NCBI GenBank assembly: GCA_017443515.1 | Contig: JAFRXM010000024.1 | Span: forward strand, 12,031 to 76,030 | Direction of reading: 5' to 3' | Origin: Bacillota bacterium | GTDB taxonomy: Bacteria > Bacillota > Clostridia > Peptostreptococcales > Anaerovoracaceae | DNA: 64,000 nucleotides | Shown: piece by piece, positions 27,502 through 47,568 of the stretch | Layout: every line of letters starts with the position of its first letter | How positions within the stretch are numbered: position 1 is the first letter of the stretch | Position numbers and translations under genes: made by a program | The notes under the pieces: model-generated | What the model was told of the DNA's origin: nothing | Databases searched by the model: none | What the model saw: only the letters and a program-made list of their open reading frames with translations

Positions 27502-27516
27502 TCCTCCAATATACTA

Positions 27517-28486: not shown

Positions 28487-28520
28487 GATCGACCTCCGAA
28501 ACTCCGTTTCTTCCGCAGTT

Positions 28521-29690: not shown

Positions 29691-29728
29691 CTCACACCTC
29701 CCACTGTGCGCCTCTTTGCGCTGTTATT

Positions 29729-29775
29729 ATGAACAGGTTCATTAAAATTTTAACATTGTCTGCCGGCGGTGTCAA
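29729..29775 (-). promoter_or_regulatory. promoter plus palindromic operator of the methyltransferase operon
   Basis: On the minus strand: TTGACA (29775-29770), a 17-nt spacer, then TAAAAT (29752-29747). The palindrome ATGAAC-CT-GTTCAT (29742-29729) lies across the start-site region. Confidence 0.5.
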
Positions 29776-29817
29776 GAGCACCGGAAATGTGATATAATAA
29801 ATTGAACGGAGGCTTAT

Positions 29818-30291: not shown

Positions 30292-30330
30292 AGCCAGCCT
30301 TTTTTATTTCCTGCGCAAACAGAAGACAAA

Positions 30331-30366
30331 ATATCATTTGATATTTTTAATATCATTTGATATAAT
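30331..30366 (+). promoter_or_regulatory. promoter with twin palindromic operators
   Basis: ATATCATTTGATAT occurs twice (30331-30344 and 30350-30363). The -35 TTGATA (30338-30343) lies in copy 1. The -10 TATAAT (30361-30366) overlaps copy 2. The spacer is 17 nt. Confidence 0.6.
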
Positions 30367-30397
30367 CATGTTGTGACGGACGGCGAAAGGAGATATC

Positions 30398-31198: not shown

Positions 31199-31216
31199 CT
31201 GAAAAAACGAAAAAAT

Positions 31217-31277
31217 GGGACGGTTCTGGATTTTCATTTTGGTAATAATTGTCAAAATGAAAATCCAGAACCGTCCC
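31217..31277. repeat. long-stem member of the hairpin repeat family (copy D, two cores), also a bidirectional terminator
   Basis: GGGACGGTTCTGGATTTTCATTTTG (31217-31241) pairs perfectly with CAAAATGAAAATCCAGAACCGTCCC (31253-31277). An A-tract lies upstream and a T-tract downstream. It sits between convergent genes. Confidence 0.85.
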
Positions 31278-31286
31278 CACTTTTCA

Positions 31287-33634: not shown

Positions 33635-34416
33635 TACTTTACCTTTCCAAAACCGTATATTGCCGCGCCGTAAGCTCCGTTGAGCTGCTGTATGCCGGAC
33701 ACTTTTATGGGTGTGCCGAGTTCTTTTTCAAGCGCTTTTACTACTCCCGCGTTTCTGGCTACGCCGCCTGCCATGTAGACCGGAGGCTTTACGCCAAGCC
33801 TTTTAACAAGAGACGCCGCCTTGACTGCCACCGAGGTGTTGATGCCGCGCACCAGGCTAGGTATATCCACGCCCCTTGAGAGCTGCGATATGACCTCAGA
33901 CTCCGCGAAGACCGTGCATGTGGAGCTGACGCTTATCATGCCTTCGGCCTTTTCGTCGTAGTCCGAAAGCTCTCCGATACCAAGCTCCAGCACCCTGGCC
34001 ATCACCTCGAGGAACCTTCCGGTGCCTGCCGCGCACTTGTCGTTCATGATGAAGTTCTCGAGCCTGCCGTTTTCGCCTATGGTCATGGCTTTCGCGTCCT
34101 GGCCGCCTATGTCTATGACGGTGCGCGCGTCGGGATACATCGAGTGTATGCCAAGGCCGTGCGCGGTGAGCTCGCTTATCGCGAAGTTCGCCTTCTCGAA
34201 GCTGTTCCTGCCGTAGCCGGTGGACGTGATGTTTGCGATACTGTCCTCAGCTGCGCCGGCGTCCTTAAGCGCCGCCTCAAAAGCCCTCGCCGGGCCTGTA
34301 GTCCCGGTGCCCGCGTCGACTATGGAACTTCCGACTATTTCTTTGCCGTTCTTCAGCACCACGCATTTCGACGTGGTGGACCCGACATCGATCCCAAGTG
34401 TAAAAACGTCTGCCAT
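33634..34416 (-). CDS. 2-hydroxyacyl-CoA dehydratase activator ATPase (HadI/FldI/HgdC-like)
   Basis: LGIDVGSTTSKCVVL...IDIGGQDAKA...NDKCAAGTGRFLE...MAGGVARN is the BcrAD/HgdC ASKHA pattern. Confidence 0.85.
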   Translation of the reverse strand: MADVFTLGIDVGSTTSKCVVLKNGKEIVGSSIVDAGTGTTGPARAFEAALKDAGAAEDSIANITSTGYGRNSFEKANFAISELTAHGLGIHSMYPDARTVIDIGGQDAKAMTIGENGRLENFIMNDKCAAGTGRFLEVMARVLELGIGELSDYDEKAEGMISVSSTCTVFAESEVISQLSRGVDIPSLVRGINTSVAVKAASLVKRLGVKPPVYMAGGVARNAGVVKALEKELGTPIKVSGIQQLNGAYGAAIYGFGKVK

Positions 34417-34429
34417 TTTTCAGCCCTCG

Positions 34430-35671
34430 CTATCCGTTAAGCTTCTCCTTAAGATCTTCCCAGGTGTTGTAGACGCCCGCTTCGTGCATCTCTTTGAGTT
34501 CCTCTTCGCTGTAGCCAAGGCTCCTTAAAACCTCCTCGGAGTGCTCGCCCAGAAGCGGTCCGTGTCCGAAGTCCGCAAAGCTGTCGCCGATCTTGACCGG
34601 CTGACGGATGACCTTGATGGTCCTTCCTGTCTTGCAGGGGATCTCCTGGAACACGCCAGTAGCGTTGACCTGCGGGTCTGTGAGGAGCTCTCTGTACTCC
34701 AGGCAGATGGAGTGAGGAATGTCGGCCTCAGTGAAGAGCCTGTCCCACTCGGCGGCGGTCTTCTTGGCGTATTCAGCCTCGAGGATCTCGGTGAACTCCG
34801 CGTAAAGATCGTTTGCCGCGATGCTTTCTATCGTGTAGCGCGGGTTGCCTACAAGATCCGCCCTCCCCAGGGTCTCCAGATACTTGGGAAGCTCCAGGTT
34901 GAAGGCCGGGCAGCAGGTCTGGAAGTACCTGTCGTCGGCTGTTCTGTATGCGTTGTTGAGCGGGTTGTTGAGCTTCTTGTAGGAGATCGGAAAACTCTCG
35001 CCGTATTCGGGGAACTGCTCGGACTGTATCATTACGCCCTGAGCCCAGATGGAGGTGTGCACCAGGGAGGTGGTGACTCTTTCGCCTATTCCGGTCTTCT
35101 GAGCCTTGATGTAGGCTGCCAGAACGCCGCCCACAAGGCCGAAGCCCGCTACGTGGTCGCCAAATCCGGGAACCAGTACGGGAGGACGTCCGTCCTTATC
35201 CCTGAGGGACCCGGAAGCGCCGGCCTTAGCCCAGAAGCAGGTAAAGTCGTAGCCGGGAAGATCCTTTTCAGGGCCTTCATCTCCGTAGCCGGAGCAGTCC
35301 GCGAACACCAGTTTGGGGAACTTAGCGTGAAGGTCTTCGTAGGTGAGGTTCTGCTTTGCCAGCGCCCTCTGCCTCCAGTTGGTGAGGAAGATGTCCGCGT
35401 CCTCAAGGAGCCTGAAGAGGGCTTCCTTGCCCTTCGGATCCTTCATGTTGAGGATGATGCCCTTCTTGCCGCCGTTGTCCAGGTCGAAACTGGTATTTTC
35501 GTAGGGGCTGGGGCTGCGCCACTCGGCTGCCGCTGCGAAGCGGTACGGATCTCCGTTCCTTGCCTCGATCTTTATGACTTCCGCGCCCTGGTCGGCGAGG
35601 AATTTACCTACCGTGGGGACCGCAATAAATGTTGCGAGCTCTACTACTTTAATCCCTTCAAGTGCTTTCAT
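34430..35671 (-). CDS. family III CoA-transferase (HadA/FldA-like)
   Basis: MKALEGIKVVELATFIAVPTVGKFLADQGAEVIKIE...FLTNWR. An AAGGAG RBS precedes the ATG at 35671. The 118 upstream codons of the ORF-track call cross promoter, operator and repeat sequence. Confidence 0.8.
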   Translation of the reverse strand: MKALEGIKVVELATFIAVPTVGKFLADQGAEVIKIEARNGDPYRFAAAAEWRSPSPYENTSFDLDNGGKKGIILNMKDPKGKEALFRLLEDADIFLTNWRQRALAKQNLTYEDLHAKFPKLVFADCSGYGDEGPEKDLPGYDFTCFWAKAGASGSLRDKDGRPPVLVPGFGDHVAGFGLVGGVLAAYIKAQKTGIGERVTTSLVHTSIWAQGVMIQSEQFPEYGESFPISYKKLNNPLNNAYRTADDRYFQTCCPAFNLELPKYLETLGRADLVGNPRYTIESIAANDLYAEFTEILEAEYAKKTAAEWDRLFTEADIPHSICLEYRELLTDPQVNATGVFQEIPCKTGRTIKVIRQPVKIGDSFADFGHGPLLGEHSEEVLRSLGYSEEELKEMHEAGVYNTWEDLKEKLNG

Positions 35672-35707
35672 CGTGTTCTCCTTATTGTGAATATCTGCCG
35701 TTGAGAA

Positions 35708-35757
35708 ATTAGAATCAATTCTAATTTTTATTCTATCTTTTTTTAGAAAAATGTCAA
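35708..35757 (-). promoter_or_regulatory. promoter of the dehydratase operon with operator palindrome 1
   Basis: On the minus strand: TTGACA (35757-35752), a 16-nt spacer, then TAGAAT (35735-35730). The palindrome ATTAGAAT-CA-ATTCTAAT (35708-35725) lies just downstream of the -10. Confidence 0.5.
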
Positions 35758-35776
35758 TGCTTTTTTGCGGAAACGC

Positions 35777-35813
35777 TGGACAAAATTTAAAATCTATATT
35801 AGAATCGATTCTA
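35777..35813 (+). promoter_or_regulatory. promoter of the divergent TetR gene with operator palindrome 2
   Basis: TGGACA (35777-35782), a 17-nt spacer, then TAGAAT (35800-35805). The perfect 14-bp palindrome TAGAATCGATTCTA (35800-35813) overlaps the -10. It has the same half-site as palindrome 1. Confidence 0.5.
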
Positions 35814-35832
35814 GAAAGTTGGTGGAGAGAAG

Positions 35833-35887
35833 GATGACAGGGGGACGGTTCTCTGTCACCGTGACAGAGAACCGTCCCCCTGTCATC
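35833..35887. repeat. head-to-head pair of GTGACAG-class hairpin repeats (copy E, two cores)
   Basis: GATGACAGGGGGACGGTTCTCTGTCAC-C-GTGACAGAGAACCGTCCCCCTGTCATC has perfect 27-nt arms. It lies in the predicted 5' leader of the TetR gene, ending 3 nt before its GGAGG RBS. Confidence 0.9.
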
Positions 35888-35900
35888 CCGGGAGGGTTTT

Positions 35901-36485
35901 ATGACAAAGGTACAGGAAAAGCAGACTTTAAGGCGCAAGGAGATCATCGAAAAGATCGTGCCCCTGCTCGAAGAAAAGTCGTTCGAAGAAATAAGCGTCG
36001 AAGACATCTGCCGCGCCGCGGACATCTCCGTAGGCTCCTTCTACCATTACTTCGAAAAGAAATCCGACATCCTCGTGGGCCTCTTCAGCCGCATCGACAG
36101 CTACATGGAAGAGCACGCCTACCCGCTCATGAAAAAACGCGACGAGGCGGAAAACATCCGCATCTTCGCGCGTGAATGGCTGAAATATATAGAGGGCACC
36201 GGCCTGGAGCATTCAAGGCTCATCTCCTCGATAGACGCAACAGACCTCACCTTAAGCGGCGATGAAAGAAGCTCGGCTAAAAAGCTTGCGGAGTGCTTCG
36301 CCCGCGGCCAGAGGCTGGGCACTATAGACGATTCCCATCCAGCCGCGGAAGCCTCCTCGCTTTTCATGATAGCGCTGCGCGGAATAGCCCTGGACTGGAC
36401 AAGAAGAAACGCCTCGTACTCGCTTACGGAGCGGGGCGATATCTACATAGACTATCTTCTCAAAGCATTGCGTCCGGCAAGATAA
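35901..36485 (+). CDS. TetR/AcrR-family regulator
   Basis: HTH: ISVEDICRAADISVGSFYHYFEKKSDIL. It is divergent from the dehydratase operon. Confidence 0.8.
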   Translation: MTKVQEKQTLRRKEIIEKIVPLLEEKSFEEISVEDICRAADISVGSFYHYFEKKSDILVGLFSRIDSYMEEHAYPLMKKRDEAENIRIFAREWLKYIEGTGLEHSRLISSIDATDLTLSGDERSSAKKLAECFARGQRLGTIDDSHPAAEASSLFMIALRGIALDWTRRNASYSLTERGDIYIDYLLKALRPAR

Positions 36486-37303
36486 TCTGCAGCAAGAAGG
36501 CCGTTCTCCCGGCCCTCTTCGTATAGGGCGAGTATTCTTTTTTTATCTTTTTCAAGCGAGTGCAGGTGGTTGTGCCTCGGGTAAAGTATGAGCGCCCTGC
36601 CCTCTTTTTCAAGCTCCAGGCAGCGCCTTAGCTGCAAGTTGTATATCTCCGCCTGGCGGGCGAGCTTTTTTGCTATCGCAGGGTATTTTTTCAATTTTTC
36701 CGCCGCGGCCGCATCGCCTTTGCCGCTGCGGAAATGGTTTTTGGGCAGGGTCAGTATGACGATCACGCTGTCGCAGCCGTCGGCGAGGGCTTTTTCGAAG
36801 GGTATGGGATCGCTGACGTAGCCGTCGAAATAACGCTTTCCGTTGAATTCGTAGGGCTTGCAGACTCCGGGCATGCACGAGGACGCGCAGATCATGCCGT
36901 ACGAATCCTTTTTCATGAGCTCTTTTCCGAAATACTCCGCCTCACCCGTCTCAGCGTTGGTAGCAACAGCCTTCATCTCCGTGGGCGAAGCCATAAAAGC
37001 CTCGTAGTCCAGCGGGCACTTACCGCCGGACCTGCTGAGCGTACCATAAATGTAATCCAGATCTATCAGCGATCCGGTAAGGAGCTTTGCGACCGGGCCT
37101 ATAGCCCTCGGAGAAAAGTTGTACCTGGTGTAGAAGTTCAGATTCCGCCCGGACTGCCCCGAAACGTAGGAACAGCAGTTTGCCGACCCCGCGGAGACTC
37201 CTATGCAGTAATCCAGCCTTATATCGTTATCTATGAGGTAGTCGAAAACACCGCTTGCAAAAACTGCGCGGTTGCCTCCGCCCACATCTATTATTCCTGT
37301 CAT
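36452..37303 (-). CDS. patatin-like phospholipase
   Basis: Oxyanion GGGNRAVF, a GxSxG nucleophile elbow (GVSAGS) and a later D-G pair. Confidence 0.75.
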   Translation of the reverse strand: MTGIIDVGGGNRAVFASGVFDYLIDNDIRLDYCIGVSAGSANCCSYVSGQSGRNLNFYTRYNFSPRAIGPVAKLLTGSLIDLDYIYGTLSRSGGKCPLDYEAFMASPTEMKAVATNAETGEAEYFGKELMKKDSYGMICASSCMPGVCKPYEFNGKRYFDGYVSDPIPFEKALADGCDSVIVILTLPKNHFRSGKGDAAAAEKLKKYPAIAKKLARQAEIYNLQLRRCLELEKEGRALILYPRHNHLHSLEKDKKRILALYEEGRENGLLAADYLAGRNALRR

Positions 37304-37326: not shown

Positions 37327-38778
37327 CTATTTTGTGAATCTGATCTTAAGGCCCGGCAGAACCAGTACCGCGGAACGCTGCCCGTCCCGCCCTTCGCGGA
37401 CAGGCACTACGCCCCACTTCAGCTTTCCTTCGTCGGAGAAGGAGCACGGGTATCTGCCCAGATCATGCCTTCCGGTAAGCGCCGCGCCGTCCGATCCGAA
37501 ATAGTAGAATTCGTCGGCAAGCACCTGCCAGCCGGTCTGCATCACGCCGTCCGCGTCGAAAAGGTACAGCGAGCCGTCTATGAACAGAGGGCCTGTGCGC
37601 ATGGCGCCGTCCGTGCCGAAATAATACCTGACGCCGTCCGTATCCTGCCAGCCTGTAAGCATGGCTCCGTTATCGTCAAAGAGGTAGCGGCTGCCGTCGA
37701 CATCCGCCCATCCGGTACGCAGCTCTCCGTTTTTGCCAAAGTAGCAGCGCGAAGCCTCAGCTCCGCCGGAACTTTCCCGGCCTGTTCGCACGTCCTGCCA
37801 GCCTGTGAGCATATCGCCGCCATCTGTAAAGAGGTATCTGCGGCCCGCTATGGTCTGCCAGCCGGTAAGGAACTGTTTTGCCGCAGGATCAAGGTATCCG
37901 ATGGAGCCACCGGTGCTTTCAGCCCCGCTGTTTTTGCGCACCCAGCCGCTCTGCGCTTTGGCATCCAGGTACCACACATCAAGATCTACCACACCTTCTA
38001 TCCCGGGCACCTTGCCGCTAGAACTGTACTGCCAGAACTCGTAAGGACCTTCGTAGCCGGACTTCCTGTTGGTGGTGTACGCCGCGAGCCAGACCGTATA
38101 TTTTCCGTTGATCTCCGCCATGTTGGCCTTGCTGTTGCTGTTGAGGGCCGACCTGCTGCCGTAGAAGCACGGCGTATACCCGGCTGCCTTCACCCTTTCC
38201 AGGAACGCCAACGCTATATCCGTGCGCGTGCGGCTGTCCAGCTGAGCCTCATAGAGCCTTCCCACCGGCTTGCCGTCGCTGTAGGGAAACTCCACGTCGT
38301 AGACGACAGGAAGCAGGATGTTCGCCGGGCCGAGGCCGTACTTTTCAAGCAGCTGCACCGTAAAATCAGCCTCTTCTACGCCTTCCTCCACGGTGATAGC
38401 CTGCGAGAACAGGTAGACCCCTACCATAAGGCCGTTTTCCAGAGCGCCCTTAAGGTTCTGCTCCAGATACTCATCCTCCACCAATGCGCCGGTGCCGTAG
38501 CCGCGGTAGCCCACTCGTATGAAGACGAACTCCGCGCCCGCGTCCGCCACCGCCTTCCAGTCTATCTCCTTCTGGTGAGCCGAAACGTCTATGCCGTAGT
38601 GCTTCTCGCGGCCTGCCATCTTCTCGTCGTGGATGAGACCTCTTCCGCCAAAGCCCGCAAAGCGCGTATCGTAGCTGTACTCATCCTCCGCCGCGTAGGC
38701 CGACCGGGATCCCACTACCCCGGCAGCCAGACCCGTAAGCATCAGTATAGTAAAAAACAGAGCAATTATCTTTTTCAA
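37327..38778 (-). CDS. GH25 muramidase with C-terminal cell-wall-binding repeats
   Basis: GIDVSAHQKEIDWKAVADAGAEFVFIRVGYRGY is the GH25 pattern. The C-terminus has repeated GWQ..G..YYF/YLF motifs. I chose the TTG at 38778 (an AGGGGA RBS lies 7 nt upstream), because the longer ORF-track start overlaps the upstream operon terminator. Confidence 0.7.
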   Translation of the reverse strand: MKKIIALFFTILMLTGLAAGVVGSRSAYAAEDEYSYDTRFAGFGGRGLIHDEKMAGREKHYGIDVSAHQKEIDWKAVADAGAEFVFIRVGYRGYGTGALVEDEYLEQNLKGALENGLMVGVYLFSQAITVEEGVEEADFTVQLLEKYGLGPANILLPVVYDVEFPYSDGKPVGRLYEAQLDSRTRTDIALAFLERVKAAGYTPCFYGSRSALNSNSKANMAEINGKYTVWLAAYTTNRKSGYEGPYEFWQYSSSGKVPGIEGVVDLDVWYLDAKAQSGWVRKNSGAESTGGSIGYLDPAAKQFLTGWQTIAGRRYLFTDGGDMLTGWQDVRTGRESSGGAEASRCYFGKNGELRTGWADVDGSRYLFDDNGAMLTGWQDTDGVRYYFGTDGAMRTGPLFIDGSLYLFDADGVMQTGWQVLADEFYYFGSDGAALTGRHDLGRYPCSFSDEGKLKWGVVPVREGRDGQRSAVLVLPGLKIRFTK

Positions 38779-38817
38779 TGCATTATCCCCTTTGCTGTAT
38801 CCTATTTTAAACAAAAA

Positions 38818-38851
38818 GGCATAATAAAACAAGCCCCGCGCTTGGCGGGGC
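38818..38851 (-). terminator. intrinsic terminator of the flavo-FeS/ALDH operon
   Basis: On the minus strand, GCCCCGC-CAAGC-GCGGGGC is followed by TTGTTTTATTAT. Confidence 0.7.
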
Positions 38852-38872
38852 CTGTATGCTTTTCAGATCCTA

Positions 38873-40270
38873 CTACTTAAGATTCCACTTTCCGAAGAGT
38901 TCCTCGTCGGTCGGGATGTGCTCTTCGATAGGATAGGAGATCCATGTGGTGTTCATGAAGTGCTTGTAGGTGATGTTCTCGGATGCGATGTTTCCGCCCC
39001 AGGTTCCGCAACCAAGGGAAGAAGTGAACGGCATACCGTTGTTCCAGTTACCGGTGTTAGCAGCGGATGTAGCCTGGTTGACCATGACCCTGGAAGTGTG
39101 GGTGTAGGTAGCAAGCCTCATTACGTGCTCGTCATTGGTGGTCTGGATAGCGCAGCTGTGGCCCTTGCCAGCAACTTCGTGGATGTCGTTTACGCACTTG
39201 ATCATCTCGTCGAGAGTGTCTCTCTTGTAGACAGCAACAACGACGGAGAGCTTTTCGAAGCTCAGCGGGTGCTCCTTGAGTCCGAATCCTTCGTACTCGC
39301 AGATGATGAAGGTCTTGTCTGCGGGGATGGAGAATCCAGCCATCTCAGCGATCTTCTGTGCAGGCTGTGCAGCAACCTTGGAGTTGAACTTGCCGTTCGG
39401 GAACATCATCTGCTCGAGAGCCTTGACCTGCTCCGGAGTGCAGAGGTATCCGCCTTCAGCAACCAGCTTGGGCAGGAACTCGTCATAGATGTTGCTCTGA
39501 ACAACGAGAGCGTTGTCGGAGGAGCAGGAAGTAGCGTTGTCGAAGATCTTGGAAACGCGGACGTTTGTAGCAGCCTTGTCGAGGTCAGCGGTATCGTCGA
39601 TGAGGACAACAGCGTTGCCTGCGCCTACGCCGTAAGCCGGAGTACCGGAGGAGTAAGCGGACTTAACGAGGCCGGAACCACCAGTAGCGATTACGAGGTC
39701 GCACTGTGCCATCAGAGCTGCGGAAGCTTCCATGCTTACGTCGGTGATGGTGAGGATGAGGTCTTCGGGAGCGCCGTGCTTTCTAAGAGCTGTGCGCATT
39801 ACTTCGCAGACTTCGTAGTTGGTCTTGTTTGTACGGGGGTGCGGGCTCATAACGATAGCGTTTCTGCACTTGATAGCATCAAGAGCCTTTACTACCGGAG
39901 TCATTTCGGGGTTGGTGCAGGGGATGATAGCACCGATGACGCCTACCGGCTTAGCCATCTTGATGATGCCCTTTTCGGTGTCTGTCTCGAGGATACCAAC
40001 GGACTTCTTGTCCATGATATCTCTCCAGCATCCTCTTACCTTCTTGCGAAGCTTGGTGAGCTTACCATCGAGGGTTCCCATTTTGGACTCTTCGAAAGCA
40101 AGAGTTCCGAGACGGACAACGTTCTCTTCTCTGGTGATTTCGAAAGCGATAGCTGCGCAGAGCTCGTCTACCTGTTCCTGGGTGTAGTACTCGATCTGAG
40201 CCTGAGCTACTCTTGCACGTGCGATAAGGTCCGCTACCATTTCGGTCGGAGTCTTAACTGCTTCAGACAT
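38873..40270 (-). CDS. CoA-acylating aldehyde dehydrogenase (SucD/EutE/PduP-like)
   Basis: 465 aa: [18 protein letters not shown]...[25 protein letters not shown]...[11 protein letters not shown]...GCGTWGGN. Confidence 0.75.
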
Positions 40271-40331
40271 AATAGTTGTCTCCTTTCAATATTTGAATAT
40301 CTTACAATATGTTATACGAAGTCATTGTGCC

Positions 40332-40357
40332 CCACCGCCCGGAAAACCGGGCGATGG
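40332..40357 (-). other. intercistronic GC-rich stem-loop without a U-tract
   Basis: The minus-strand RNA reads CCAUCGCCCGG-UUUU-CCGGGCGGUGG, an 11-bp stem with one G-U pair. It lies between the 565-aa FAD oxidase and the ALDH gene. Confidence 0.5.
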
Positions 40358-40384
40358 AGCGAATGGTTGTACTGTGTTTACAGA

Positions 40385-42082
40385 CTACTTCTTAGCCTGC
40401 TTAGCCTTGTGAGCCTTGAGGTATTCGGGATCGAGTGTACGATAGTAGGAACCGCACAGATCGAGCGGGTTGAACGCCTTCTTGACCTGATACTGATAGG
40501 TTACCAGACCGGGCTGAGCCATGCCTACGAACATCTCGTTCTGCTCGTCCTGGGTGTAGTAGTAGTCGGTCTCCGGATGACGGGCTGTCATGTTCCAGTT
40601 ACCCATGTCTGCGCCGAATCCATACTTGTCGCAGAGCTTCTGGCTGTAGTTCTGGATGAAGTCGCAGGCGCCCTTTACGGACTCTCTGTCGTGTCTGTCG
40701 AACCACTGGAAGAACTCGTAACCGGTTATACCGCCGCCGCCGAGTGTGGACAGAGCGCCCATCTCGGAGTCGCCGCCTGTAGCTGCAAGAGCGGTGCTGT
40801 GCTTGTCAAAGTCCTCACGCATCTGGTGATACTCTTCCATGACCTTGGAGGTAACGAATACGTTGTTGGAAAGTCCGCCGGAACCTTCGTAGCTGGAAGC
40901 CAGCGTGTAGTTGAGGTTCTTGTGTCCAAGACGCAGCAGGTAGAGTGCTACGAAGTCGTGGATCTTCGGCTGGAGCATGTACTCGTTCTTCCATCCCTTT
41001 ACACGGCGGAGGATCTCGTCGATAGCCTTTTCTTTCCACTCCATATCTCTCTTGGTCATACCTACAACGACGACCTGGAGATCGATCTTGCAGAGCTTGT
41101 TCTGCTCAGCGATGTACGGATCGTTCATGTACTTGGGCAGATCGCAGAGCTGACCTTCAGGATCGGACAGGAGCTCGAGCATCGGCAGCTTGATGTAGCG
41201 GCCCCACATGTTGAACTGTCTGTGACCGAGGTAAGCGATCTCGTTGTTCTGAGAGAGCAGGTTGATGGTGTTTGCGTAAGCTTCCCAGTTGGGGAAGTTG
41301 AGCGTGTAGGTCTTGATGTTCCACTGCGGAACGAGCTTGTAAGCAGCGCCTACGCCGTAGGAGGGCAGTACGCGCGGACCCGGCCAGGGGTGGAGACGGA
41401 CTGCAACTCTGCAGCATACGCCCATGGAGCCTGCGGGGCCCTGCATACCACGGAGCACGCCTCTGAAGCTGGGGCCGGGGCCTTCGCCGCAGAACCAGTC
41501 TCCGCCTGCGCCGAGGGTACCGGTGCGGACGAGATCTCCGTTAGGAAGTACCCACTCGGTAGCGAGCATGTTCTCGGAAGCTACTCCCATGAAGCAGGAG
41601 GACGGTCCGAATGCTACCCAGGAAGCGGTACCGGCAAGAGTGGAGGAGGAGCATCCTACACCTGCCATGTTGACGTTGAAGCCTCTCTTCATAGCTTCGA
41701 CCTGTACTACAGCGCCGATAGCGTAGGGCTCTACGACAACATACTGATCTCTTTCGTGGAACTCGATCTTCTTCATGCGCTTCATATCGATCTGGAGGGA
41801 GTCGTCGTCGCCGATGTAGCCCATTACAGACCAGAATGTTGTAGCAGCCTTGAAGTGGATGTCGTACTTGTTGCAGATCTTAACGATTGCCTGAACTTCC
41901 GCGGTGCTTCCGGGCATGATGACTGCGCCGGGGATCGGGGACTTGACATCGTAAGGTCCGAAGTGAGCGGAGGACTGGGTATTGATAACTCTGTAGGATT
42001 CGAGCATTGCCGGATCCTGAGAGATATTCTTCTTACCTACTACCAGCTCTAATTCTCTATAAGCGTCCTGATTGAATGCCAT
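40385..42082 (-). CDS. FAD-binding (PCMH/VAO-type) oxidoreductase, long form
   Basis: 565 aa. The N-terminal FAD segment is PGAVIMPGSTAEVQAIVKICNKYDIHFKAATT...IDMKRMKKI. Confidence 0.65.
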   Translation of the reverse strand: MAFNQDAYRELELVVGKKNISQDPAMLESYRVINTQSSAHFGPYDVKSPIPGAVIMPGSTAEVQAIVKICNKYDIHFKAATTFWSVMGYIGDDDSLQIDMKRMKKIEFHERDQYVVVEPYAIGAVVQVEAMKRGFNVNMAGVGCSSSTLAGTASWVAFGPSSCFMGVASENMLATEWVLPNGDLVRTGTLGAGGDWFCGEGPGPSFRGVLRGMQGPAGSMGVCCRVAVRLHPWPGPRVLPSYGVGAAYKLVPQWNIKTYTLNFPNWEAYANTINLLSQNNEIAYLGHRQFNMWGRYIKLPMLELLSDPEGQLCDLPKYMNDPYIAEQNKLCKIDLQVVVVGMTKRDMEWKEKAIDEILRRVKGWKNEYMLQPKIHDFVALYLLRLGHKNLNYTLASSYEGSGGLSNNVFVTSKVMEEYHQMREDFDKHSTALAATGGDSEMGALSTLGGGGITGYEFFQWFDRHDRESVKGACDFIQNYSQKLCDKYGFGADMGNWNMTARHPETDYYYTQDEQNEMFVGMAQPGLVTYQYQVKKAFNPLDLCGSYYRTLDPEYLKAHKAKQAKK

Positions 42083-42099
42083 ATTTATACCTCCCTGAA

Positions 42100-43368
42100 T
42101 TACAGTGCACGAGCTACGAGGTCGATAATGTCGATGACATCGATCTTCTTACCGTTCTCGTCTACTGCGTTCTTGAAGTTGGCCTCGCACCACGGGCAAG
42201 CTGTTACGAGAGCATCTGCACCGGTGCTGTTAGCTTCGGTGACGCGCTCGTTGGCTGTAGCCTGAGACATTTCCGGGTTGGTGATCTGGACGTTTGCGCC
42301 AGCGCCGCAGCAGAGCGAGTACTCGCGGATACGTTCCATCTCTACGAGGGTGACCCCGGGGATAGCCTTGATGACATCGCGCGGTGCGTCATAGATTCCG
42401 TAGACGCCCATTCTGCGAGGTCTTCTGGGCTCCCAGGTAACTACCTGGTTCATGATCTTCTTTTCTTCGCCGTGCCATTCGGTGTAGGGCTCGCCCTGAC
42501 GGCCGAGGTGGCAGGGATCATGGTAGGTGACTACCAGGTCGAGGTTCTTCTTGAACTTGATCTTCTTTTCCTTGATGAGTTTGTCGAGGTACTCGGTAAC
42601 ATGGAGTACTTCTACCTTGCAGCCGCGTGCAGCGTACAGGGTCTTGAATGCGTGATAACAGTCAGCGCACGGGGTAACGATGGTCTTTACGCCCTTGGCT
42701 TCGAATGCCTTGATGTTGGCATCTGCTCTGGCGCCGAACTCATCGAAGAAGCCCATCTGATATGCACGGCCTGCACAGCACATATCTGCGTCGCCGAGAT
42801 ATCCGAGCTTGACGCCGGCCTTGATGAGGGTCTCGGCAGCCTTCTTCGCATAGCCCTGCAGAGCAGGATCATAGCTGTACTTGCAGCCGGGGAAGAACAC
42901 GACTTCTGCGTCCTTCTCGAACTTGATGCCCTTTGCCCAGTCCTGTCTCTTTGCCTTCTTTTCGCCGGCAATGAGGGTCTGCTGCTTCTTGAGGGAATCG
43001 ATCATCTTCTTCTGCTCGGGAGTAGCGAAGCCCTTGAGTATAGCTTCGTTCTTGAGCTCTACGCAGTAGTCGAGACCTTCGAGGTTGAACCTGGTGATCT
43101 TGCAGGTTACGTCGCATGCGCCGCAGGCGGTGCAGGACTGAACAGCGTTGAGCCATTCCGGAGAAGACTTGAAGTCGTAGTCGCCGGTCAGATAAGCCTG
43201 GCCTACCTGCCACTTACCACGCAGTGAGTACATATGCCACTGATAGTAGAGGTTGGTGGGGCAGTTCTCGCCGAAGCGCTGGGACTGGATCTTATCGAAT
43301 GGTATCCACTTGCAACCGAGGCAGTTGGAGCAACGCTCCATCATCGGTAAATAATCTTTTAATGCCAT
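42100..43368 (-). CDS. iron-sulfur protein with two ferredoxin motifs and two CCG domains (GlcF/GlpC/HdrD-like)
   Basis: CSNCLGCKWIP...CP and CTACGACDVTC, plus FFPGC...MCCAG and YHDPCH...LCCGAG...CPWC. Confidence 0.75.
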   Translation of the reverse strand: MALKDYLPMMERCSNCLGCKWIPFDKIQSQRFGENCPTNLYYQWHMYSLRGKWQVGQAYLTGDYDFKSSPEWLNAVQSCTACGACDVTCKITRFNLEGLDYCVELKNEAILKGFATPEQKKMIDSLKKQQTLIAGEKKAKRQDWAKGIKFEKDAEVVFFPGCKYSYDPALQGYAKKAAETLIKAGVKLGYLGDADMCCAGRAYQMGFFDEFGARADANIKAFEAKGVKTIVTPCADCYHAFKTLYAARGCKVEVLHVTEYLDKLIKEKKIKFKKNLDLVVTYHDPCHLGRQGEPYTEWHGEEKKIMNQVVTWEPRRPRRMGVYGIYDAPRDVIKAIPGVTLVEMERIREYSLCCGAGANVQITNPEMSQATANERVTEANSTGADALVTACPWCEANFKNAVDENGKKIDVIDIIDLVARAL

Positions 43369-43386
43369 ATTCTAGTCTCCCCTTTC

Positions 43387-44865
43387 TTAAATTGTGATCT
43401 TGCCGGGGTTCATGACGCCCTTGGGGTCGAAGATGCCCTTAAGCTTCTTGAGGTTCTCGAAGCCCATAGCGTCCTTGTTGAGCTGGATGCGTGCCCAGGG
43501 TCCGTGCGGCCTTGAATAGTAAGCGCCTGCCTGAGCCAGCTCTACGCTTGCTCTGTCGAAGAGCTCCTTGGCGAGCCTGGTATCCTTGCAGGATGCCGGA
43601 TCGTACGGAAGCGTGAAGCAGATGTGGTATGCGGATCCGTAGTGGACAGGCTGTACGTATACGCCGATGTCGGAAGCGGGATAGCCTACCTTGGCTGCGA
43701 TGTCGTTCATCTTGTCGATGAACATAGCGGTGTCGTCGATCTTGCTCATGAAGAAGATATCCTGGAATGCGCCCTTGTAGGTCTCTTTCCAGTACTTCTT
43801 TGCCGGGGACGGAGTAATGGCCTTCTTGTAGAAATCGTTAGCGCTTACGCTGCCGATAGCGTTGACAGGAACGAGTCCGTTCTTCTGAGCGAATTCCTTG
43901 ATGTCAGCTTCCTGCTGAGCGCACTTTTCCTGCGGCAGAAGATCTCTTCCGCCAACTCCTACGAAGCAAGCCCATGCGGGGAGTTCCTTCTTGAGAGCTT
44001 CGATCTCCTTGGCGTCCTTACCCATGAGGTTGGCGATCTGCGCCTTGTTCAGGATGAAGAGCTCGTCAGAGAAACGAACATGGATGACGTCCCATACGAA
44101 GTTGAGGAGAGCTTTTTCGGTCTCAGCGGTGACGAAGAAGCACTTGTGAGCCTGATGAGCGAGCTCGCAGCGGACAGATGCCCATGTTACGACGCCCATG
44201 GTTCCTTCGGACTGGGTGAGCAGACGGTAGAAGTCGAGCATCATCGGTCCGAGCGGGCTGACCTGCCACTTCTCCTGGCTCCACTGCTTCTCGAGGGATC
44301 CTACAGGACCACCGTTTGCAGCGTCGCCTGTGTACATGCGGTTTCCGTCGCCCCAGGTGACTTCCACGCAGCGGAACGGCTCGGTGTAAGAGAAGCCGTG
44401 GCATGCATTGAGCCTCGGCTCGATGTCCATGACGTCTGCGAGGACGGACTTGGTGTCTCTCGGTGCCAGGGTGTATGCGAAGTGCATGCCCTTCTTAGCG
44501 AGTTCCTTCTGGAACTGACCATAGGTGACGCCCGGCTCGATGACAGCCATTCTGTGAAGCTTGTTGATGCTTAATACTTTGTTCATTCCGGACAGATCAA
44601 CGATTACTGCGCCGGGAACGGAGGGGACGGTGTCTCCCTTATAGTGGGGAGCACCGGAGCTGACAGGTATGATCGGGAACTCCTTCTCATTTGCAAGCTT
44701 TACGAGAGCTTCTACCTGGTCAGCGTTCTTCGCCTTTACGACGAAGCTTGGAGTCATTGCTTTAGCAAAGCTCTTGTCGCTGGCGTAAGCGGCAAGATCT
44801 GCTTCCTTATCAGAAACAGCAGCAGCGCCAAAGATCTTCTCCAGTTCAGCCTTGAGTTTAACCAC
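43387..44865 (-). CDS. FAD-binding (GlcD-like) oxidoreductase
   Basis: 492 aa with a GTG start after AAAGGAGG. PSFVVKAKNADQVEALVKLANEKEFPIIPVSSG...VIVDLSGMNKV. Confidence 0.7.
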   Translation of the reverse strand: MVKLKAELEKIFGAAAVSDKEADLAAYASDKSFAKAMTPSFVVKAKNADQVEALVKLANEKEFPIIPVSSGAPHYKGDTVPSVPGAVIVDLSGMNKVLSINKLHRMAVIEPGVTYGQFQKELAKKGMHFAYTLAPRDTKSVLADVMDIEPRLNACHGFSYTEPFRCVEVTWGDGNRMYTGDAANGGPVGSLEKQWSQEKWQVSPLGPMMLDFYRLLTQSEGTMGVVTWASVRCELAHQAHKCFFVTAETEKALLNFVWDVIHVRFSDELFILNKAQIANLMGKDAKEIEALKKELPAWACFVGVGGRDLLPQEKCAQQEADIKEFAQKNGLVPVNAIGSVSANDFYKKAITPSPAKKYWKETYKGAFQDIFFMSKIDDTAMFIDKMNDIAAKVGYPASDIGVYVQPVHYGSAYHICFTLPYDPASCKDTRLAKELFDRASVELAQAGAYYSRPHGPWARIQLNKDAMGFENLKKLKGIFDPKGVMNPGKITI

Positions 44866-44951
44866 GCGATTACCTCCTTTGGAATGCTGGATAAAAAATG
44901 TCTATAAAACAAACGATCAACGTTTATTTCCGTGTTTTAAGGGCCCGGGAC

Positions 44952-45527
44952 TCAGTACGCCTCCAGTGCCATGCTTATGCAGTCGTGCAGACCTTTTGTG
45001 AGGTCTGTTTCTCCTCCGGTTATGCACCAGTTGTAGCAGCAGCCGCGGGCGATGGTGAAGAGGTAGTCCACTATCTCCTCTGCCGTGTGCTCCGTCGCCA
45101 GCTCTTTTGCGGCGAGGCCGTCTGCGGTTATGTCAGCAAGAAGCTTGTGCATGGGACGCTTTTTGATGAACCAGGAGTTTTCCGGATTATAAAGCACCCG
45201 CACAAGATCTATGCCGGTATCTATGTTTAATTTAGCGTAATATTTGAAGAAATCCAGGATGCGCTCCTTTGCGTCGGAGCCTGTGATGCGAGCGGCGACG
45301 GTTTCGGAGAAATAGTCGTCTGCGGTTTTGTATATGTCGAAGAAAAGATCTGTCTTGGAGGGGAAATAGCTATAGAACGTTCCGACGGATATATCTGCCT
45401 GTGCACATATATCGCGGACTGTGGTGCTCTGGTAGCCTTTTCGCTTCATAAGATCGAGCGATGTGACCAGGAGCTTTTCTCTGGTTTTCTGAGCGCGCTT
45501 GCTTAATAATGCTTCGTTCATCTGCAC
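44952..45527 (-). CDS. TetR/AcrR-family regulator
   Basis: HTH: TTVRDICAQADISVGTFYSYFPSKTDLF. It is the first gene of the co-directional cluster. Confidence 0.8.
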   Translation of the reverse strand: MQMNEALLSKRAQKTREKLLVTSLDLMKRKGYQSTTVRDICAQADISVGTFYSYFPSKTDLFFDIYKTADDYFSETVAARITGSDAKERILDFFKYYAKLNIDTGIDLVRVLYNPENSWFIKKRPMHKLLADITADGLAAKELATEHTAEEIVDYLFTIARGCCYNWCITGGETDLTKGLHDCISMALEAY

Positions 45528-45693
45528 GTTTTCCTCTGCCTTTTGACACTAAAAGTATAACATGTTCAGTTTTTAAAGAAAAGGACTTTTTTTAAGTTTT
45601 TGCACAAAAATCACAATAAATACACCCGATTTTTTGGCAAAAAAATAACGTGGTATTTCACCGCGCTAAACGCCCCCACATCTAGTGTGAACA

Positions 45694-45718
45694 GTGGAGA
45701 GGGACGGTTCTTCTCCAC
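45694..45718 (+). repeat. loop-conserved hairpin repeat, GTGGAGA-stem class (copy F)
   Basis: GTGGAGA-GGGACGGTTCT-TCTCCAC. Confidence 0.9.
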
Positions 45719-45732
45719 CGTTCTGTCAACGA

Positions 45733-46096
45733 TTATACTCGTGCTTTATAGTAATTCTCTGCATATGACATGAATGCGCGCATCGCATCAGTAGGATTGG
45801 AATCCTCCTTTTGAATAAAGTATAGCCTTGAAAAACGTTTTGGCTTAACAGGCCTGAATGCAAGGTTGTTTTTGCTTAGCACCTCCGCGGAAGTCATCCA
45901 GTAACACGCCTCTTGGCATAATAACAGGCAGGGAGCTGCACTGCTCTTCCAACAATTCTGAATACTCCGCAAGCACGTCGTCATTTTTCATCAGAAGTCC
46001 CACCCTTTTAAGGTTATTAGTCTTCACAAAAGCGTTGTTTTTCGGGTCAGAACCATAGTAGTTACATGCTATATCCGCTACTTTCCGTTTTGTCAA
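45733..46096 (-). pseudogene. LysR-family regulator remnant (C-terminal effector-domain part, frameshifted, N-terminus deleted)
   Basis: Two overlapping reading frames (45845-46096 and 45733-45984). The C-terminal ...FRPVKPKRFSRLYFIQKEDSNPTDAMRAFMSYAENY is a LysR-like tail. There is no HTH, and the 5' side abuts the IS remnant. Confidence 0.5.
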
Positions 46097-46099
46097 AGA

Positions 46100-46286
46100 A
46101 TCTATATAGCTTTGAGGAACTCAAAGATGCAATAGATAAATATATACGTTATTACAACGAGAAACGCGGCAAGGCATCTCTTGGGTACATGAGTCCAATT
46201 GAATACCGAAAAAAGATGCTTGCTGCATAGAATAACTCCGGCGATTTCTCGCCGGAGCAAAAGTCTAACTTTTGGGGGTCACCTCA
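46100..46286 (+). mobile_element. IS3-family (IS150-group) remnant: last ~44 codons of the transposase plus the right inverted repeat
   Basis: The plus frame reads ...YSFEELKDAIDKYIRYYNEKRGKASLGYMSPIEYRKKMLAA*, with the stop at 46228-46230. The end sequence read in reverse is TGAGGTGACCCCCAAAAGTTAGAC, like the IS150 IR TGTACTGACCCCAAAAAGTTGGAC as I recall it. The left boundary is approximate. Confidence 0.65.
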
Positions 46287-46317
46287 GAGATATAGTCTCC
46301 GACCGCATTTTTATTAC

Positions 46318-46343
46318 ATGACAGAGAACCGTCCCCTTGTCAC
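46318..46343 (-). repeat. loop-conserved hairpin repeat, GTGACA-stem class (copy G)
   Basis: ATGACA-GAGAACCGTCCCCT-TGTCAC. It lies 1 nt from the aminopeptidase stop codon. Confidence 0.85.
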
Positions 46344-46344: not shown

Positions 46345-47568
46345 TCAGAATGCCCAGTTGCCGTTCTTAAAGATCTGGATTTTTTTGCCGTCGCGGGTGT
46401 TTGCGACTATGTCGAGGTCTTCTGAACCGATCATGAAGTCCACATGCATGAAGGACTTGTTGACGCCCTTGTCATAGGCTTCCTGAAGGGTCATGTTTTC
46501 GAAACCGTCCAGGGTGTCCGCGAAGCCGAAGCCCAGCGCCAGGTGGCAGGCTGCGTTCTCGTCGAACAGGGTGTTGTAGAACAGGAGGCCGCTGTTCTGG
46601 ATCGGAGAATCGTAAGGCACCAGAGCGACTTCGCCCAGCATGCAGGAACCTTCGTCCATGTTGATGATCTCGGTAAGAACGTCCTTGCCCTTTTCAGCGT
46701 CCCATTCCACGGCCTTGCCGTCCCTGAAGCGGACCCAGAAGTTCTCGATAAGCTGGCCGTTGTTGGAGAGCGGCTTGGTGGCGTATACTATGCCTTCGGC
46801 CCTGCCCTTCATCGGGGAGATGAAGCACTCCTCGGAAGGCATGTTGGGGTTGAAAGTGTAGCCAAGAAGGCTGGTGTCGGCGCCGCCGTTGAAGTGCGCG
46901 CCGTCTATCATCCAGACCTTGAAATCTGTGCCGTTCTTGGACTTGTACTCAAGGCTGTCGATGCCAAGCGAGTTGAGATACTTGCAGCGAGCCTTGAGGT
47001 CCTTGTTGTGAGCGTCCCATGCCGCCAGCGGGTCTTCGGTGACGCGTGCGCAGGAGAGTATTGCCTCCCAGAGCTTTTCCACGGCCTGCTTTTTGGAAAG
47101 CTCGGGGAAGAGCTTCTTTGCCCACTTCTCGCCGGGAACAGCGGCTATGCACCACTGGTACTTGTTTTCTATCTGATCCCTGTACTTGCGGATCTCCGGC
47201 ATCTTCTTCTGCATGGCCTTGGCGAACTTTTTCTGATCGATGCCCTTAAGGCCGTCCGGATCTTCGGATTCCAGGTATATGCGGCAGGGAATTGTATTTA
47301 CGTAATGCTGCCATCTGGCGGCTTCGAAATCCTGCAGAGTGCCGAGGGTCTTGAGGCTCCTGTAGCGGGTGTGGATCTTTGCCAGAGGCTGGTAAGTGAA
47401 GTCTACGAATACGGATTTTGCTCCGAGCTTGTAGCACTCTTCTACGAGCATCTTTACGAATTCAGGCTGGTCGAGCTCCGCCTGGATGAATACTTCCTGG
47501 CCCTTCTGGACATTTACGCCCTTGGCTGCGATGAGGTTCGCGTACTTTCTTAATACTGTCTTTTTCAT
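46345..47568 (-). CDS. M29-family aminopeptidase (AmpS/PepS-like)
   Basis: 407 aa: LRKYANLIAAKGVNVQKGQEV...FYNTLFDENAACHLALG...HVDFMIG. Confidence 0.75.
   Translation of the reverse strand: MKKTVLRKYANLIAAKGVNVQKGQEVFIQAELDQPEFVKMLVEECYKLGAKSVFVDFTYQPLAKIHTRYRSLKTLGTLQDFEAARWQHYVNTIPCRIYLESEDPDGLKGIDQKKFAKAMQKKMPEIRKYRDQIENKYQWCIAAVPGEKWAKKLFPELSKKQAVEKLWEAILSCARVTEDPLAAWDAHNKDLKARCKYLNSLGIDSLEYKSKNGTDFKVWMIDGAHFNGGADTSLLGYTFNPNMPSEECFISPMKGRAEGIVYATKPLSNNGQLIENFWVRFRDGKAVEWDAEKGKDVLTEIINMDEGSCMLGEVALVPYDSPIQNSGLLFYNTLFDENAACHLALGFGFADTLDGFENMTLQEAYDKGVNKSFMHVDFMIGSEDLDIVANTRDGKKIQIFKNGNWAF

Follow-up and report, generated by a model that had tools for sequence, protein, structure and literature searches.

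The locus described here occupies positions 38873-45527 of a stretch of 64,000 nucleotides, called the window below, from a Bacillota bacterium of the Anaerovoracaceae (GCA_017443515.1, contig JAFRXM010000024.1, positions 12,031 to 76,030 of the forward strand); all coordinates are window positions. It is composed of five minus-strand genes read in the same direction: a TetR-family regulator, the flavoprotein FAD-A, an iron-sulfur subunit (FeS), a second flavoprotein (FAD-B) and a coenzyme A (CoA)-acylating aldehyde dehydrogenase (ALDH), separated in this order by 86, 18, 17 and 114 nt (Table 1). An earlier note, made from the sequence alone, had named these five genes and their domains; all the open reading frames (ORFs) are present and Pfam agrees with the domain calls. 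A further ORF of 1044 aa on the plus strand (38918-42052), antisense to the ALDH and FAD-B genes, has a low-complexity translation and no family match; it is a shadow ORF, misleading for length-based gene calling.

FAD-A, probably the catalytic subunit, and FAD-B were modelled with AlphaFold on alignments of 45-46 sequences (pLDDT 88.7 and 81.6, respectively). The best folds for FAD-A, a complete two-domain VAO fold, are vanillyl-alcohol dehydrogenase, eugenol oxidase (EUGO) and p-cresol methylhydroxylase (PCMH) (TMq 0.78-0.83, identity 17-22%), and mouse D-lactate dehydrogenase (mLDHD) matches as well as these once scores are normalised by target length (TMt 0.80). The FAD-B model is likewise a complete two-domain VAO fold, with a cap domain, matching PCMH, EUGO and mLDHD (TM 0.62-0.70, identity 15-17%); the first FAD motif of FAD-B (KASTTFWS) is atypical. 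Sequence searches of the PDB with either protein align just the N-terminal FAD domains. GlcE, the second flavoprotein of glycolate oxidase, has about 350 aa, and the earlier remark that the second flavoprotein of the locus is unlike it is borne out by the 565 aa and the full-length fold of FAD-B, which rule out a truncated GlcE-like subunit.

FeS carries the cysteine motifs CxxCxxC..CP at residue 13 and CxxCxxCxxxC at residue 79, and CCA/CCG motifs at residues 197 and 353. The Fer4 dicluster match in Pfam is sub-threshold, the best curated match is TfrB (152.4 bits, cut-off 385) and the PDB sequence search retrieves Hdr-type proteins; we take FeS to be an electron-transfer subunit resembling HdrD, GlcF and TfrB. 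Sequences and models show FAD-A, FeS and FAD-B to be equipped as the subunits of a heterotrimeric flavin/iron-sulfur dehydrogenase, and the GlcDEF-like composition claimed before, two flavoproteins encoded together with a subunit of two 4Fe-4S and two CCG motifs, is found again here.

Among curated families the ALDH scores best, over its full length, with SauS (NF047625, 515.9 bits, cut-off 600), and reaches 412 bits with the N-terminal domain of AdhE and 354 bits with EutE-type enzymes; its best PDB match is the succinate-semialdehyde dehydrogenase SucD of C. kluyveri (8cei, 339.5 bits over residues 12-460). By this full-length similarity it is classed as a CoA-acylating enzyme of the EutE/PduP/AdhE-N/SucD type, with Cys249, within the motif TSCSSDN, as the putative catalytic residue. 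SauS and SucD both act on short anionic aldehydes and CoA thioesters, and sulfoacetaldehyde, the substrate of SauS, is the sulfonate isostere of malonate semialdehyde.

The promoter-like site 5' of the TetR gene is overlapped by a 21-nt imperfect inverted repeat, which was recognised by pattern matching and is a candidate TetR operator, at which the regulator would repress the operon until the substrate or the aldehyde appears. The stem-loop without U tract that had been noticed before the ALDH gene is real and is stronger than was claimed, with 14 bp at 40329-40360 in place of 11 bp at 40332-40357. The closest relatives (loci L004, L005/L006 and L001 of the survey below) have GC-rich hairpins of differing sequence at this place; since the sequences are unrelated and the position is shared, it is the structure and not the sequence that is kept. 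This hairpin 3' of FAD-B would probably uncouple the mRNA amounts of the flavoprotein genes and of the ALDH. The strong terminator reported at the end of the operon is present and is one of three terminator-like sites in 7.3 kb, where 6.9 would be expected by chance.

Table 1. Features of the flavoprotein operon and of the neighbouring second operon, in window positions.
Feature	Position	Strand	Evidence or remark
Promoter-like site 5' of TetR gene	45592..45648	-	TTGCCA-16-TATTGT (45640-45613); consensus match only
TetR-family regulator, 191 aa	44952..45527	-	Pfam TetR_N, E 1.5e-14
FAD-A, VAO-fold flavoprotein, 492 aa, 54.3 kDa	43387..44865	-	Pfam FAD_binding_4 + FAD-oxidase_C
FeS subunit, 422 aa, 47.6 kDa	42100..43368	-	Pfam, two CCG domains, 110.8 bits
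FAD-B, second VAO-fold subunit, 565 aa, 63.4 kDa	40385..42082	-	Pfam, N-terminal FAD_binding_4 only
GC-rich hairpin between FAD-B and ALDH	40329..40360	-	14-bp stem, UUUU loop, no U tract; -32 kcal/mol, z = -6.5
CoA-acylating ALDH, 465 aa, 50.7 kDa	38873..40270	-	Pfam Aldedh; NCBIfam; PDB search
Intrinsic terminator closing the operon	38819..38855	-	11-bp stem 38829-38855, then TTTTATT
Class III CoA-transferase	34430-35671	-	second operon
2-Hydroxyacyl-CoA dehydratase activator	33634-34416	-	second operon
HGD-D subunit	32405-33634	-	second operon
HGD-D subunit	31287-32408	-	second operon
URO-D of O-demethylase-like set	28521-29690	-	second operon
Pterin-binding protein of O-demethylase-like set	27517-28374	-	second operon
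B12-binding protein of O-demethylase-like set	26860-27501	-	second operon

The three-gene core and its neighbours

FAD-A and FAD-B each have about 1540 homologues above threshold, all from anaerobes and tightly conserved in length (about 555 aa for those of FAD-B). In a scan of one genome per species, relatives of the core, all of unproven function, turned up in at least 444 anaerobic species, whose habitats are rumen, termite gut, digesters and sediments; the nearest are metagenome-assembled genomes (MAGs) from goat and buffalo rumen, at 94-96% identity. The FAD-A superfamily has thousands of members and is represented, at E <= 1e-30, by 230 sequences at 50% identity, to the others of which the window FAD-A is at most 46% identical. 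FAD-A-like proteins P0264, P0457, P0513 and P0537 come from Asgard archaea (Jordarchaeia/Freyarchaeota, Helarchaeota and Lokiarchaeia), Actinomycetota and Zixibacteria, so that the three-subunit system is, on these sequence matches, much wider than the clade surveyed here.

The survey of gene neighbourhoods covered 84 loci of Bacillota, Spirochaetota, Acidobacteriota, Chloroflexota, Planctomycetota and others; every ORF up to 9 kb from the core was clustered, and the recurrent clusters were annotated. FAD-A, FeS and FAD-B have the identical order in all 74 loci that hold the three genes (74/84 overall), and the remaining 10 are mostly interrupted by contig ends. TetR homologues at 33-67% identity are present within 9 kb of the core in 48 loci. 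The ALDH of the window type accompanies it in just 16, and the pairing with an acylating ALDH, described as obligatory in the earlier note, is thus not general: what is conserved is the core of three genes, in most loci together with a TetR gene. The three proteins are GlcDEF-like in composition yet form a separate and very widespread family of anaerobes.

Aldehyde-oxidising genes of four unrelated kinds are found in 35 of the 84 loci, and in 25 of the 41 loci where the core is complete and flanked on each side by 3 kb or more, which suits the earlier idea that a substrate is converted to an aldehyde and trapped as acyl-CoA. Besides the window-type ALDH, they comprise a methylmalonate-semialdehyde dehydrogenase (MMSDH) type (TIGR01722, 528-561 bits, cut-off 448.5; 8 distinct loci), a generic NAD-dependent ALDH (7 loci) and a molybdenum aldehyde oxidoreductase (NF045668, 1151 bits, above cut-off; 6 loci). 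The MMSDH gene is directly adjacent to or overlaps the core in L002, L003, L014, L016, L020, L034, L040 and L043, and is further present in L086-L089 and the divergent L092. The aldehyde-oxidiser genes belong to the core operons, and in L003 and L014 their start and stop codons overlap.

Near the core in 6 loci is a carboxyltransferase resembling MmdA (TIGR01117, 871 bits). All six loci, which belong to three separate lineages, also carry the acylating ALDH. In L001 and L007 the gene of an ALDH 73% identical to that of the window precedes mmdA-like, OAD_gamma and OAD_beta genes and a 135-aa ORF with no match in Pfam; in Limiplasma the genes form a single operon dctPQM-ALDH-mmdA. Compact operons in properly gene-called neighbourhoods include TetR-MFS-MMSDH-core-UROD, dctPQM / core-ALDH / TetR and ABC-x-MMSDH-core, and in an operon of core, membrane protein and MMSDH the FAD-A is just 41% identical to that of the window. 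In a neighbour-joining tree of FAD-A and FAD-B the MMSDH and ALDH-plus-MmdA contexts are interspersed across all major clades.

TRAP transporter genes lie beside the core in 20 loci, and TRAP or MFS carboxylate transporters adjoin it in relatives. The TRAP binding proteins of L063 and L041 have as best PDB matches 4pgn, 4nap, 4n6d, 5iga, 5i5p, 7nr2 and 7nsw (118-159 bits), which are presumed aromatic-acid binders; against sugar-acid binders they reach about 60 bits and against the isethionate binder 8t9t about 61 bits. The MFS of the Treponemataceae operon TetR-MFS-MMSDH-core-UROD resembles MhpT, the transporter for 3-(3-hydroxyphenyl)propionate (387 bits, cut-off 410), and an MFS 74-76% identical to it recurs in a second lineage (L053/L090). 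Also recurrent are iron- and zinc-dependent alcohol dehydrogenases (Fe-ADH and Zn-ADH), SDR proteins and various MFS and ABC transporters, with an Fe-ADH or Zn-ADH and a generic ALDH upstream of the core in some loci; sugar-type ABC transporters and DeoR regulators lie beside it in others, and the core is also carried by saccharolytic or peptidolytic hosts such as Anoxynatronum. One Anaerovoracaceae genome (OY781100.1; L010, L066 and L067) carries three copies of the core with differing neighbours, which suggests paralogues with different substrates in one organism.

Proteins resembling URO-D are found near the core in 12 loci, and proteins of the enoate-reductase type (OYE/Pyr_redox) in 5. 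The URO-D-like proteins are of two types, of about 338 and about 414 aa, encoded inside or directly after the core operon (L034/L086/L087, L053/L090, L035 and 8 further loci), and no corrinoid protein gene adjoins them there. For the 338-aa type neither the PDB nor NCBIfam gave a match, and the 414-aa type shows distant similarity to the URO-D of the O-demethylase set in the window; they may be methyltransferases or decarboxylases. Convergent with the Treponemataceae operon of L086 (12994-15286) are genes for a methyltransferase, an Abhydrolase_2 protein and a 316-aa two-domain VOC (Glyoxalase) protein. Two-domain VOC proteins are typical of extradiol ring-cleavage dioxygenases, and this one would be intriguing if the neighbouring operon releases a catechol or quinol.

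Proposed reaction and alternatives

Our leading, though tentative, overall reading is that the five genes form an operon, under TetR control, by which an organic acid is used oxidatively via malonate or methylmalonate semialdehyde, here written (methyl)malonate semialdehyde. From the conserved neighbours it appears probable that the complex yields (methyl)malonate semialdehyde and that this is trapped as (methyl)malonyl-CoA. MMSDH works irreversibly and specifically on malonate and methylmalonate semialdehyde, and the Na+-decarboxylases of the MmdA type act on methylmalonyl- and malonyl-CoA. Given these specificities, and since the nearest family of the ALDH (SauS) acts on an isostere of malonate semialdehyde, two unrelated ways of disposing of the same aldehyde are found beside the same core. 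The two alternatives, a one-step decarboxylating oxidation and a thioester followed by energy-conserving decarboxylation, are the strongest clue to function. As MMSDH is irreversible, the direction of the pathway would be oxidative.

The complex would take two electrons from the substrate, giving malonate or methylmalonate semialdehyde, and the electrons would exit through the FeS/CCG subunit to an acceptor. The ALDH, which we propose to be a malonate/methylmalonate-semialdehyde dehydrogenase, would with CoA and NAD(P)+ form malonyl- or methylmalonyl-CoA. In relatives the Na+-pumping MmdA-type decarboxylase would turn this thioester into acetyl- or propionyl-CoA, and in other relatives the decarboxylating MMSDH would do both steps at once. 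The simplest reaction would be a one-carbon-longer analogue of that of glycolate dehydrogenase, from a 3-hydroxy acid to the semialdehyde. The weakest step is the substrate itself, for which 3-hydroxypropionate and 3-hydroxyisobutyrate are possible but doubtful candidates; the alcohol dehydrogenase and generic ALDH upstream of the core in some loci would fit a feed from diol to hydroxy acid.

Several observations weigh against this scheme. Genes for MmdA, MMSDH, TRAP transporters and URO-D-like proteins of cluster 7 are all missing from the 64-kb window, which has neither a decarboxylase nor a transporter gene. The mmdA-like match of 871 bits is under its cut-off of 999, as the ALDH is under that of SauS, and an enzyme specific for malonate semialdehyde is present in just 25 of the 84 loci. 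An aromatic acid fits several neighbours better than does 3-hydroxypropionate, namely the MhpT-like MFS, the TRAP binding proteins with their presumed aromatic-acid-binding relatives, and the URO-D-like and enoate-reductase-like proteins. For 3-hydroxypropionate, NAD-dependent enzymes normally suffice, which leaves a flavin/iron-sulfur complex unexplained.

Three further sources or products were considered for the aldehyde and set aside. A route through succinate semialdehyde and succinyl-CoA is unlikely, with no mutase or epimerase between the ALDH and MmdA; glyoxylate and oxalyl-CoA were rejected on the reasoning that biotin carboxyltransferases need a beta-carboxy thioester; and for inositol as source of malonate semialdehyde no iolBCDEGJ-like clusters were found among the conserved neighbours.

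The aromatic signals are accommodated by a reading that we consider unlikely, in which the complex cleaves the side chain of an aromatic C6-C3 acid to a phenol and malonate semialdehyde, the latter being converted by the ALDH to malonyl-CoA. A 3-(4-hydroxyphenyl)propanoate-type acid (phloretate, dihydroferulate or dihydrocaffeate) would undergo benzylic oxidation via a quinone methide, addition of water would give a 3-aryl-3-hydroxypropanoate, and a vinylogous retro-aldol step would release the two products, in a catabolic mirror of the arene and C3 coupling suspected for the benzene enzyme discussed below. Such cleavage accounts for the aromatic and the MMSDH/MmdA signals together. It agrees with the MhpT-like MFS of the Treponemataceae operon and its recurrence in a second lineage, with the best PDB matches of the TRAP binding proteins of L063 and L041, with the enoate-reductase architecture in 5 loci, with the Fld/Had-type dehydratase clusters beside the core in the window and in L074, and with the URO-D-like genes in or beside the operon in 12 loci, which resemble O-demethylase methyltransferases. 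The best fold matches of FAD-A are 4-phenol oxidases, and benzene degraders with a complex of the same architecture accumulate labelled 3-phenylpropanoate.

The chemistry of this cleavage is, however, without precedent. The fold argument is offset by the equally good match to mLDHD, and the phenolate-binding Tyr-Tyr-Arg triad is not confirmed in FAD-A, where the alignment is ambiguous. Sugar-type ABC transporters and DeoR regulators stand beside the core in other loci, arguing for diversity or for a shared downstream module, and saccharolytic and peptidolytic hosts also carry it; the ligands of the TRAP binders are presumed, and in so huge a superfamily kinship to the benzene clade is a weak guide to substrate. 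In a more specific and still less likely form, the three proteins would be an aryl-C3 lyase/dehydrogenase for plant hydroxyphenylpropanoates, and the benzene relatives would run the reverse reaction, from arene and malonate semialdehyde to 3-hydroxy-3-phenylpropanoate and on to cinnamate or 3-phenylpropanoate.

The similarity of the folds to PCMH, eugenol oxidase and vanillyl-alcohol dehydrogenase could also mean that an aromatic alcohol or alkylphenol is oxidised to the aromatic aldehyde, for further oxidation by whatever aldehyde oxidiser a locus has; in the window it would end as aroyl-CoA. The generic ALDH, molybdenum aldehyde oxidoreductase and Zn-ADH/Fe-ADH genes of many loci and the URO-D-like genes would suit such a pathway. 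It is nevertheless improbable, as it leaves the MMSDH and the MmdA-type decarboxylase unexplained, the nearest relatives of the ALDH, SauS and SucD, handle small anionic aldehydes and the TRAP transporters imply an anionic substrate.

Quite improbable, too, is an ordinary D-2-hydroxyacid dehydrogenase of the GlcDEF/Dld-II kind, converting glycolate, D-lactate or an aryl-lactate to the 2-oxo acid, with the ALDH only loosely linked. The GlcDEF-like subunit set and a weak similarity to GlcD and LDHD speak for it. Against it, the curated scores for GlcD, GlcF and LdhH are far under their cut-offs, FAD-B is unlike GlcE, and the aldehyde oxidisers are tied to the core in operons with overlapping start and stop codons (L003, L014). 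D-2-hydroxyacid dehydrogenases are marked by a metal motif of the GEHG type, and none was seen in the C-terminus of FAD-A.

Two readings carry very little weight. A sulfonate route from isethionate to sulfoacetaldehyde by the complex and to sulfoacetyl-CoA by the SauS-like ALDH has in its favour that SauS is the best curated family of the ALDH and that TRAP transporters accompany the core in relatives, but the SauS score is below its cut-off, the carboxyltransferase/decarboxylase and MMSDH partners cannot act on sulfonates, the TRAP binding proteins score just about 61 bits with the isethionate binder and there are no sulfite-handling genes nearby. Equally slight is the prospect of a reductive pathway, in which the ALDH would reduce malonyl-CoA to malonate semialdehyde and the complex would then reduce the aldehyde or couple it to another molecule: SauS and SucD, the closest characterised relatives of the ALDH, are reductive in vivo, and the proposal for the benzene-linked complex is that it makes a phenyl-C3 acid instead of breaking one, yet the irreversible decarboxylating MMSDH replaces the ALDH in sister loci across the whole tree and the Na+-decarboxylase partners are catabolic.

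Other genes around the operon

Downstream of the flavoprotein operon lies a long minus-strand operon (25351-36485) under a second, divergent TetR gene (35901-36485, plus strand), whose Fld/Had-type 2-hydroxyacyl-CoA dehydratase cluster is 3 kb from the flavoprotein operon. Together with the complete O-demethylase-like set (Table 1), its content suggests a methoxylated aryl-lactate-type substrate. The arrangement of the two operons side by side is conserved in L004 and L005. A second, independent co-location of both systems is found in an Oceanispirochaeta MAG (L074, 1175-4313), where the alpha and beta subunits of a 2-hydroxyacyl-CoA dehydratase and an activator, 42-56% identical to those of the window, stand beside GntR-core-UROD genes.

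Immediately downstream of the operon is a GH25 lysozyme gene with choline-binding repeats (37327-38832), whose listed TTG start overlaps the terminator and whose true start is probably further in; it is followed by a patatin-like gene (36452-37303). Both are unrelated to the operon, and the GH25 gene (cluster c28) is common only to the closest relatives L004-L006. Upstream, about 700 bp of lower GC content with short ORFs only (45650-46340) separate the TetR promoter from a peptidase M29 gene; this stretch is possibly a mobile-element remnant or an insertion scar.

Comparison with known systems

E. coli GlcDEF has, like the proteins described here, two flavoproteins and one subunit with two 4Fe-4S clusters and two CCG domains, and its reaction, from hydroxy acid to oxo acid with the electrons passed on by the iron-sulfur subunit, is the proposed parallel. 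It differs in gene order, D-E-F as against a D-F-E-like order, and the hosts of the three-gene core are mostly fermenters. The earlier note had allowed for orthology to GlcDEF or LldEFG-type enzymes, with an ALDH adjacency not conserved elsewhere. The adjacency is indeed not general, but orthology is not supported by the curated models. Against GlcD, FAD-A reaches 61.9 bits (TIGR00387, cut-off 567.9) and 45 bits (PRK11230, cut-off 897), and FAD-B 37 bits (cut-off 568); FeS reaches 35.7 bits against GlcF (PRK11274, cut-off 333) and 96.7 bits against LdhH (cut-off 800). Scans with Pfam and the NCBI curated models found no match to the LutA/LutB-type families (LldEFG/LutABC) among the operon proteins. 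On these scores the three proteins are not orthologous to GlcDEF, LldEFG or LdhH.

SauS and SucD are the closest characterised relatives of the ALDH, which remains under the SauS cut-off; its partners, above all the MmdA-type decarboxylase, suggest a beta-carboxy thioester and not a sulfo- or succinyl-thioester. The 4-phenol-oxidising enzymes of the VAO/PCMH group (8s7s, eugenol oxidase, 1dii) provide the best folds for both FAD-A and FAD-B (TMq 0.62-0.66 for the latter), at just 15-22% identity. They use cytochrome c or O2, where the core has a CCG iron-sulfur protein. In a profile alignment of FAD-A to 8s7t, of ambiguous register, K76 (with Y75 adjacent) stands at the first Tyr, R136 at the Asp/Pro-151 position and an AYYxRP motif, whose R452 is invariant, near the Tyr-Arg pair; the roles of the Tyr/Tyr/Arg residues in phenolate binding and of the Asp/Glu residue in catalysis are presumed.

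The aerobic route for 3-hydroxypropionate (DddA/DddC or HpdH/MmsA), leading via malonate semialdehyde to acetyl-CoA, shares the intermediates proposed in our preferred (methyl)malonate-semialdehyde scheme, and sister loci of the core have an MMSDH-type enzyme directly beside the dehydrogenase genes. The alcohol is oxidised in the aerobic route by GMC-type or NAD-dependent enzymes, not by a VAO/FeS heterotrimer, and we know of no branch of it with an acylating ALDH and a Na+-decarboxylase.

In the literature the one complex of this type that we found is the putative benzene dehydrogenase BzS1_12970/80/90 (Musat et al. 2026, PMC13416013), equivalent to the 'Magic' proteins 24-26 of Ca. Anaerobenzenivorax ORM2a and Pelotomaculum BPL (Toth et al. 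2026, PMC13101534). This heterotrimer is the most abundant protein of anaerobic benzene degraders, at about one fifth of the proteome, and its authors propose activation of benzene by coupling to a C3 or C5 cosubstrate; the degraders accumulate labelled 3-phenylpropanoate, and cinnamate, phenylpyruvate or 3-phenylglutaryl-CoA have been suggested as products (PMC13416013, PMC13101534). The function in benzene degradation is a proposal that is biochemically unproven, and according to the same authors low-identity syntenic homologues in non-benzene degraders (NaphS2, Desulfosarcina variabilis) must serve other functions (PMC13416013, PMC13101534). BzS1, ORM2a, BPL and a Pescadero MAG are 63-89% identical within the benzene clade (PMC13416013, PMC13101534), and BzS1_12970 is 41-51% identical to its nearest non-benzene matches (PMC13416013). 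The accessions of our survey show no overlap with the entries of its Table S4 that were compared.

Compared by description, the window genes have the same order as those of BzS1, a protein with FAD_binding_4 and FAD-oxidase_C, a Cys-rich iron-sulfur protein and one with FAD_binding_4 only, and the masses are similar (54.3/48.4/65.7 kDa in BzS1 and 54.3/47.6/63.4 kDa in the window). A TetR regulator nearby and a strictly anaerobic host are also common to both. The flanks differ, with beta-oxidation genes, an acyl-CoA synthetase and class III CoA-transferases in the benzene clade and the ALDH and a terminator in the window, where a class III CoA-transferase is found 3.2 kb from the core operon, as part of another operon with a TetR of its own. 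The window operon has a peptidase M29 gene upstream (46345-47568), and in BzS1 an M29 peptidase (BzS1_12960) directly precedes the flavoprotein genes; none adjoins the core in the other loci examined, and the shared peptidase is probably a coincidence. Because the FAD-A superfamily is huge, kinship at the level of architecture says little on the substrate.

One clade of this superfamily is currently the first candidate for the long-sought enzyme that activates benzene in the absence of oxygen, and it is confined to slow, unculturable or clonal enrichment cultures. The (methyl)malonate-semialdehyde neighbours of the non-benzene relatives offer a concrete and cheap hypothesis for the reaction class, and among the carriers are the culturable Holophaga foetida, Anoxynatronum and Treponema sp. 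TIM-1. If the conservative reading is true, the operon would belong to a new energy-conserving fermentation of gut anaerobes, from hydroxy acid through malonate semialdehyde and malonyl-CoA to Na+-pumping decarboxylation. If the family instead includes aryl-C3 lyases, malonate semialdehyde would supply the C3 cosubstrate so far missing from the anaerobic activation of benzene, and Holophaga foetida and similar carriers a tractable source of a model enzyme. The benzene heterotrimer of the same architecture had already been noticed elsewhere (PMC13416013, PMC13101534); what is new here is the (methyl)malonate-semialdehyde hypothesis for the family.

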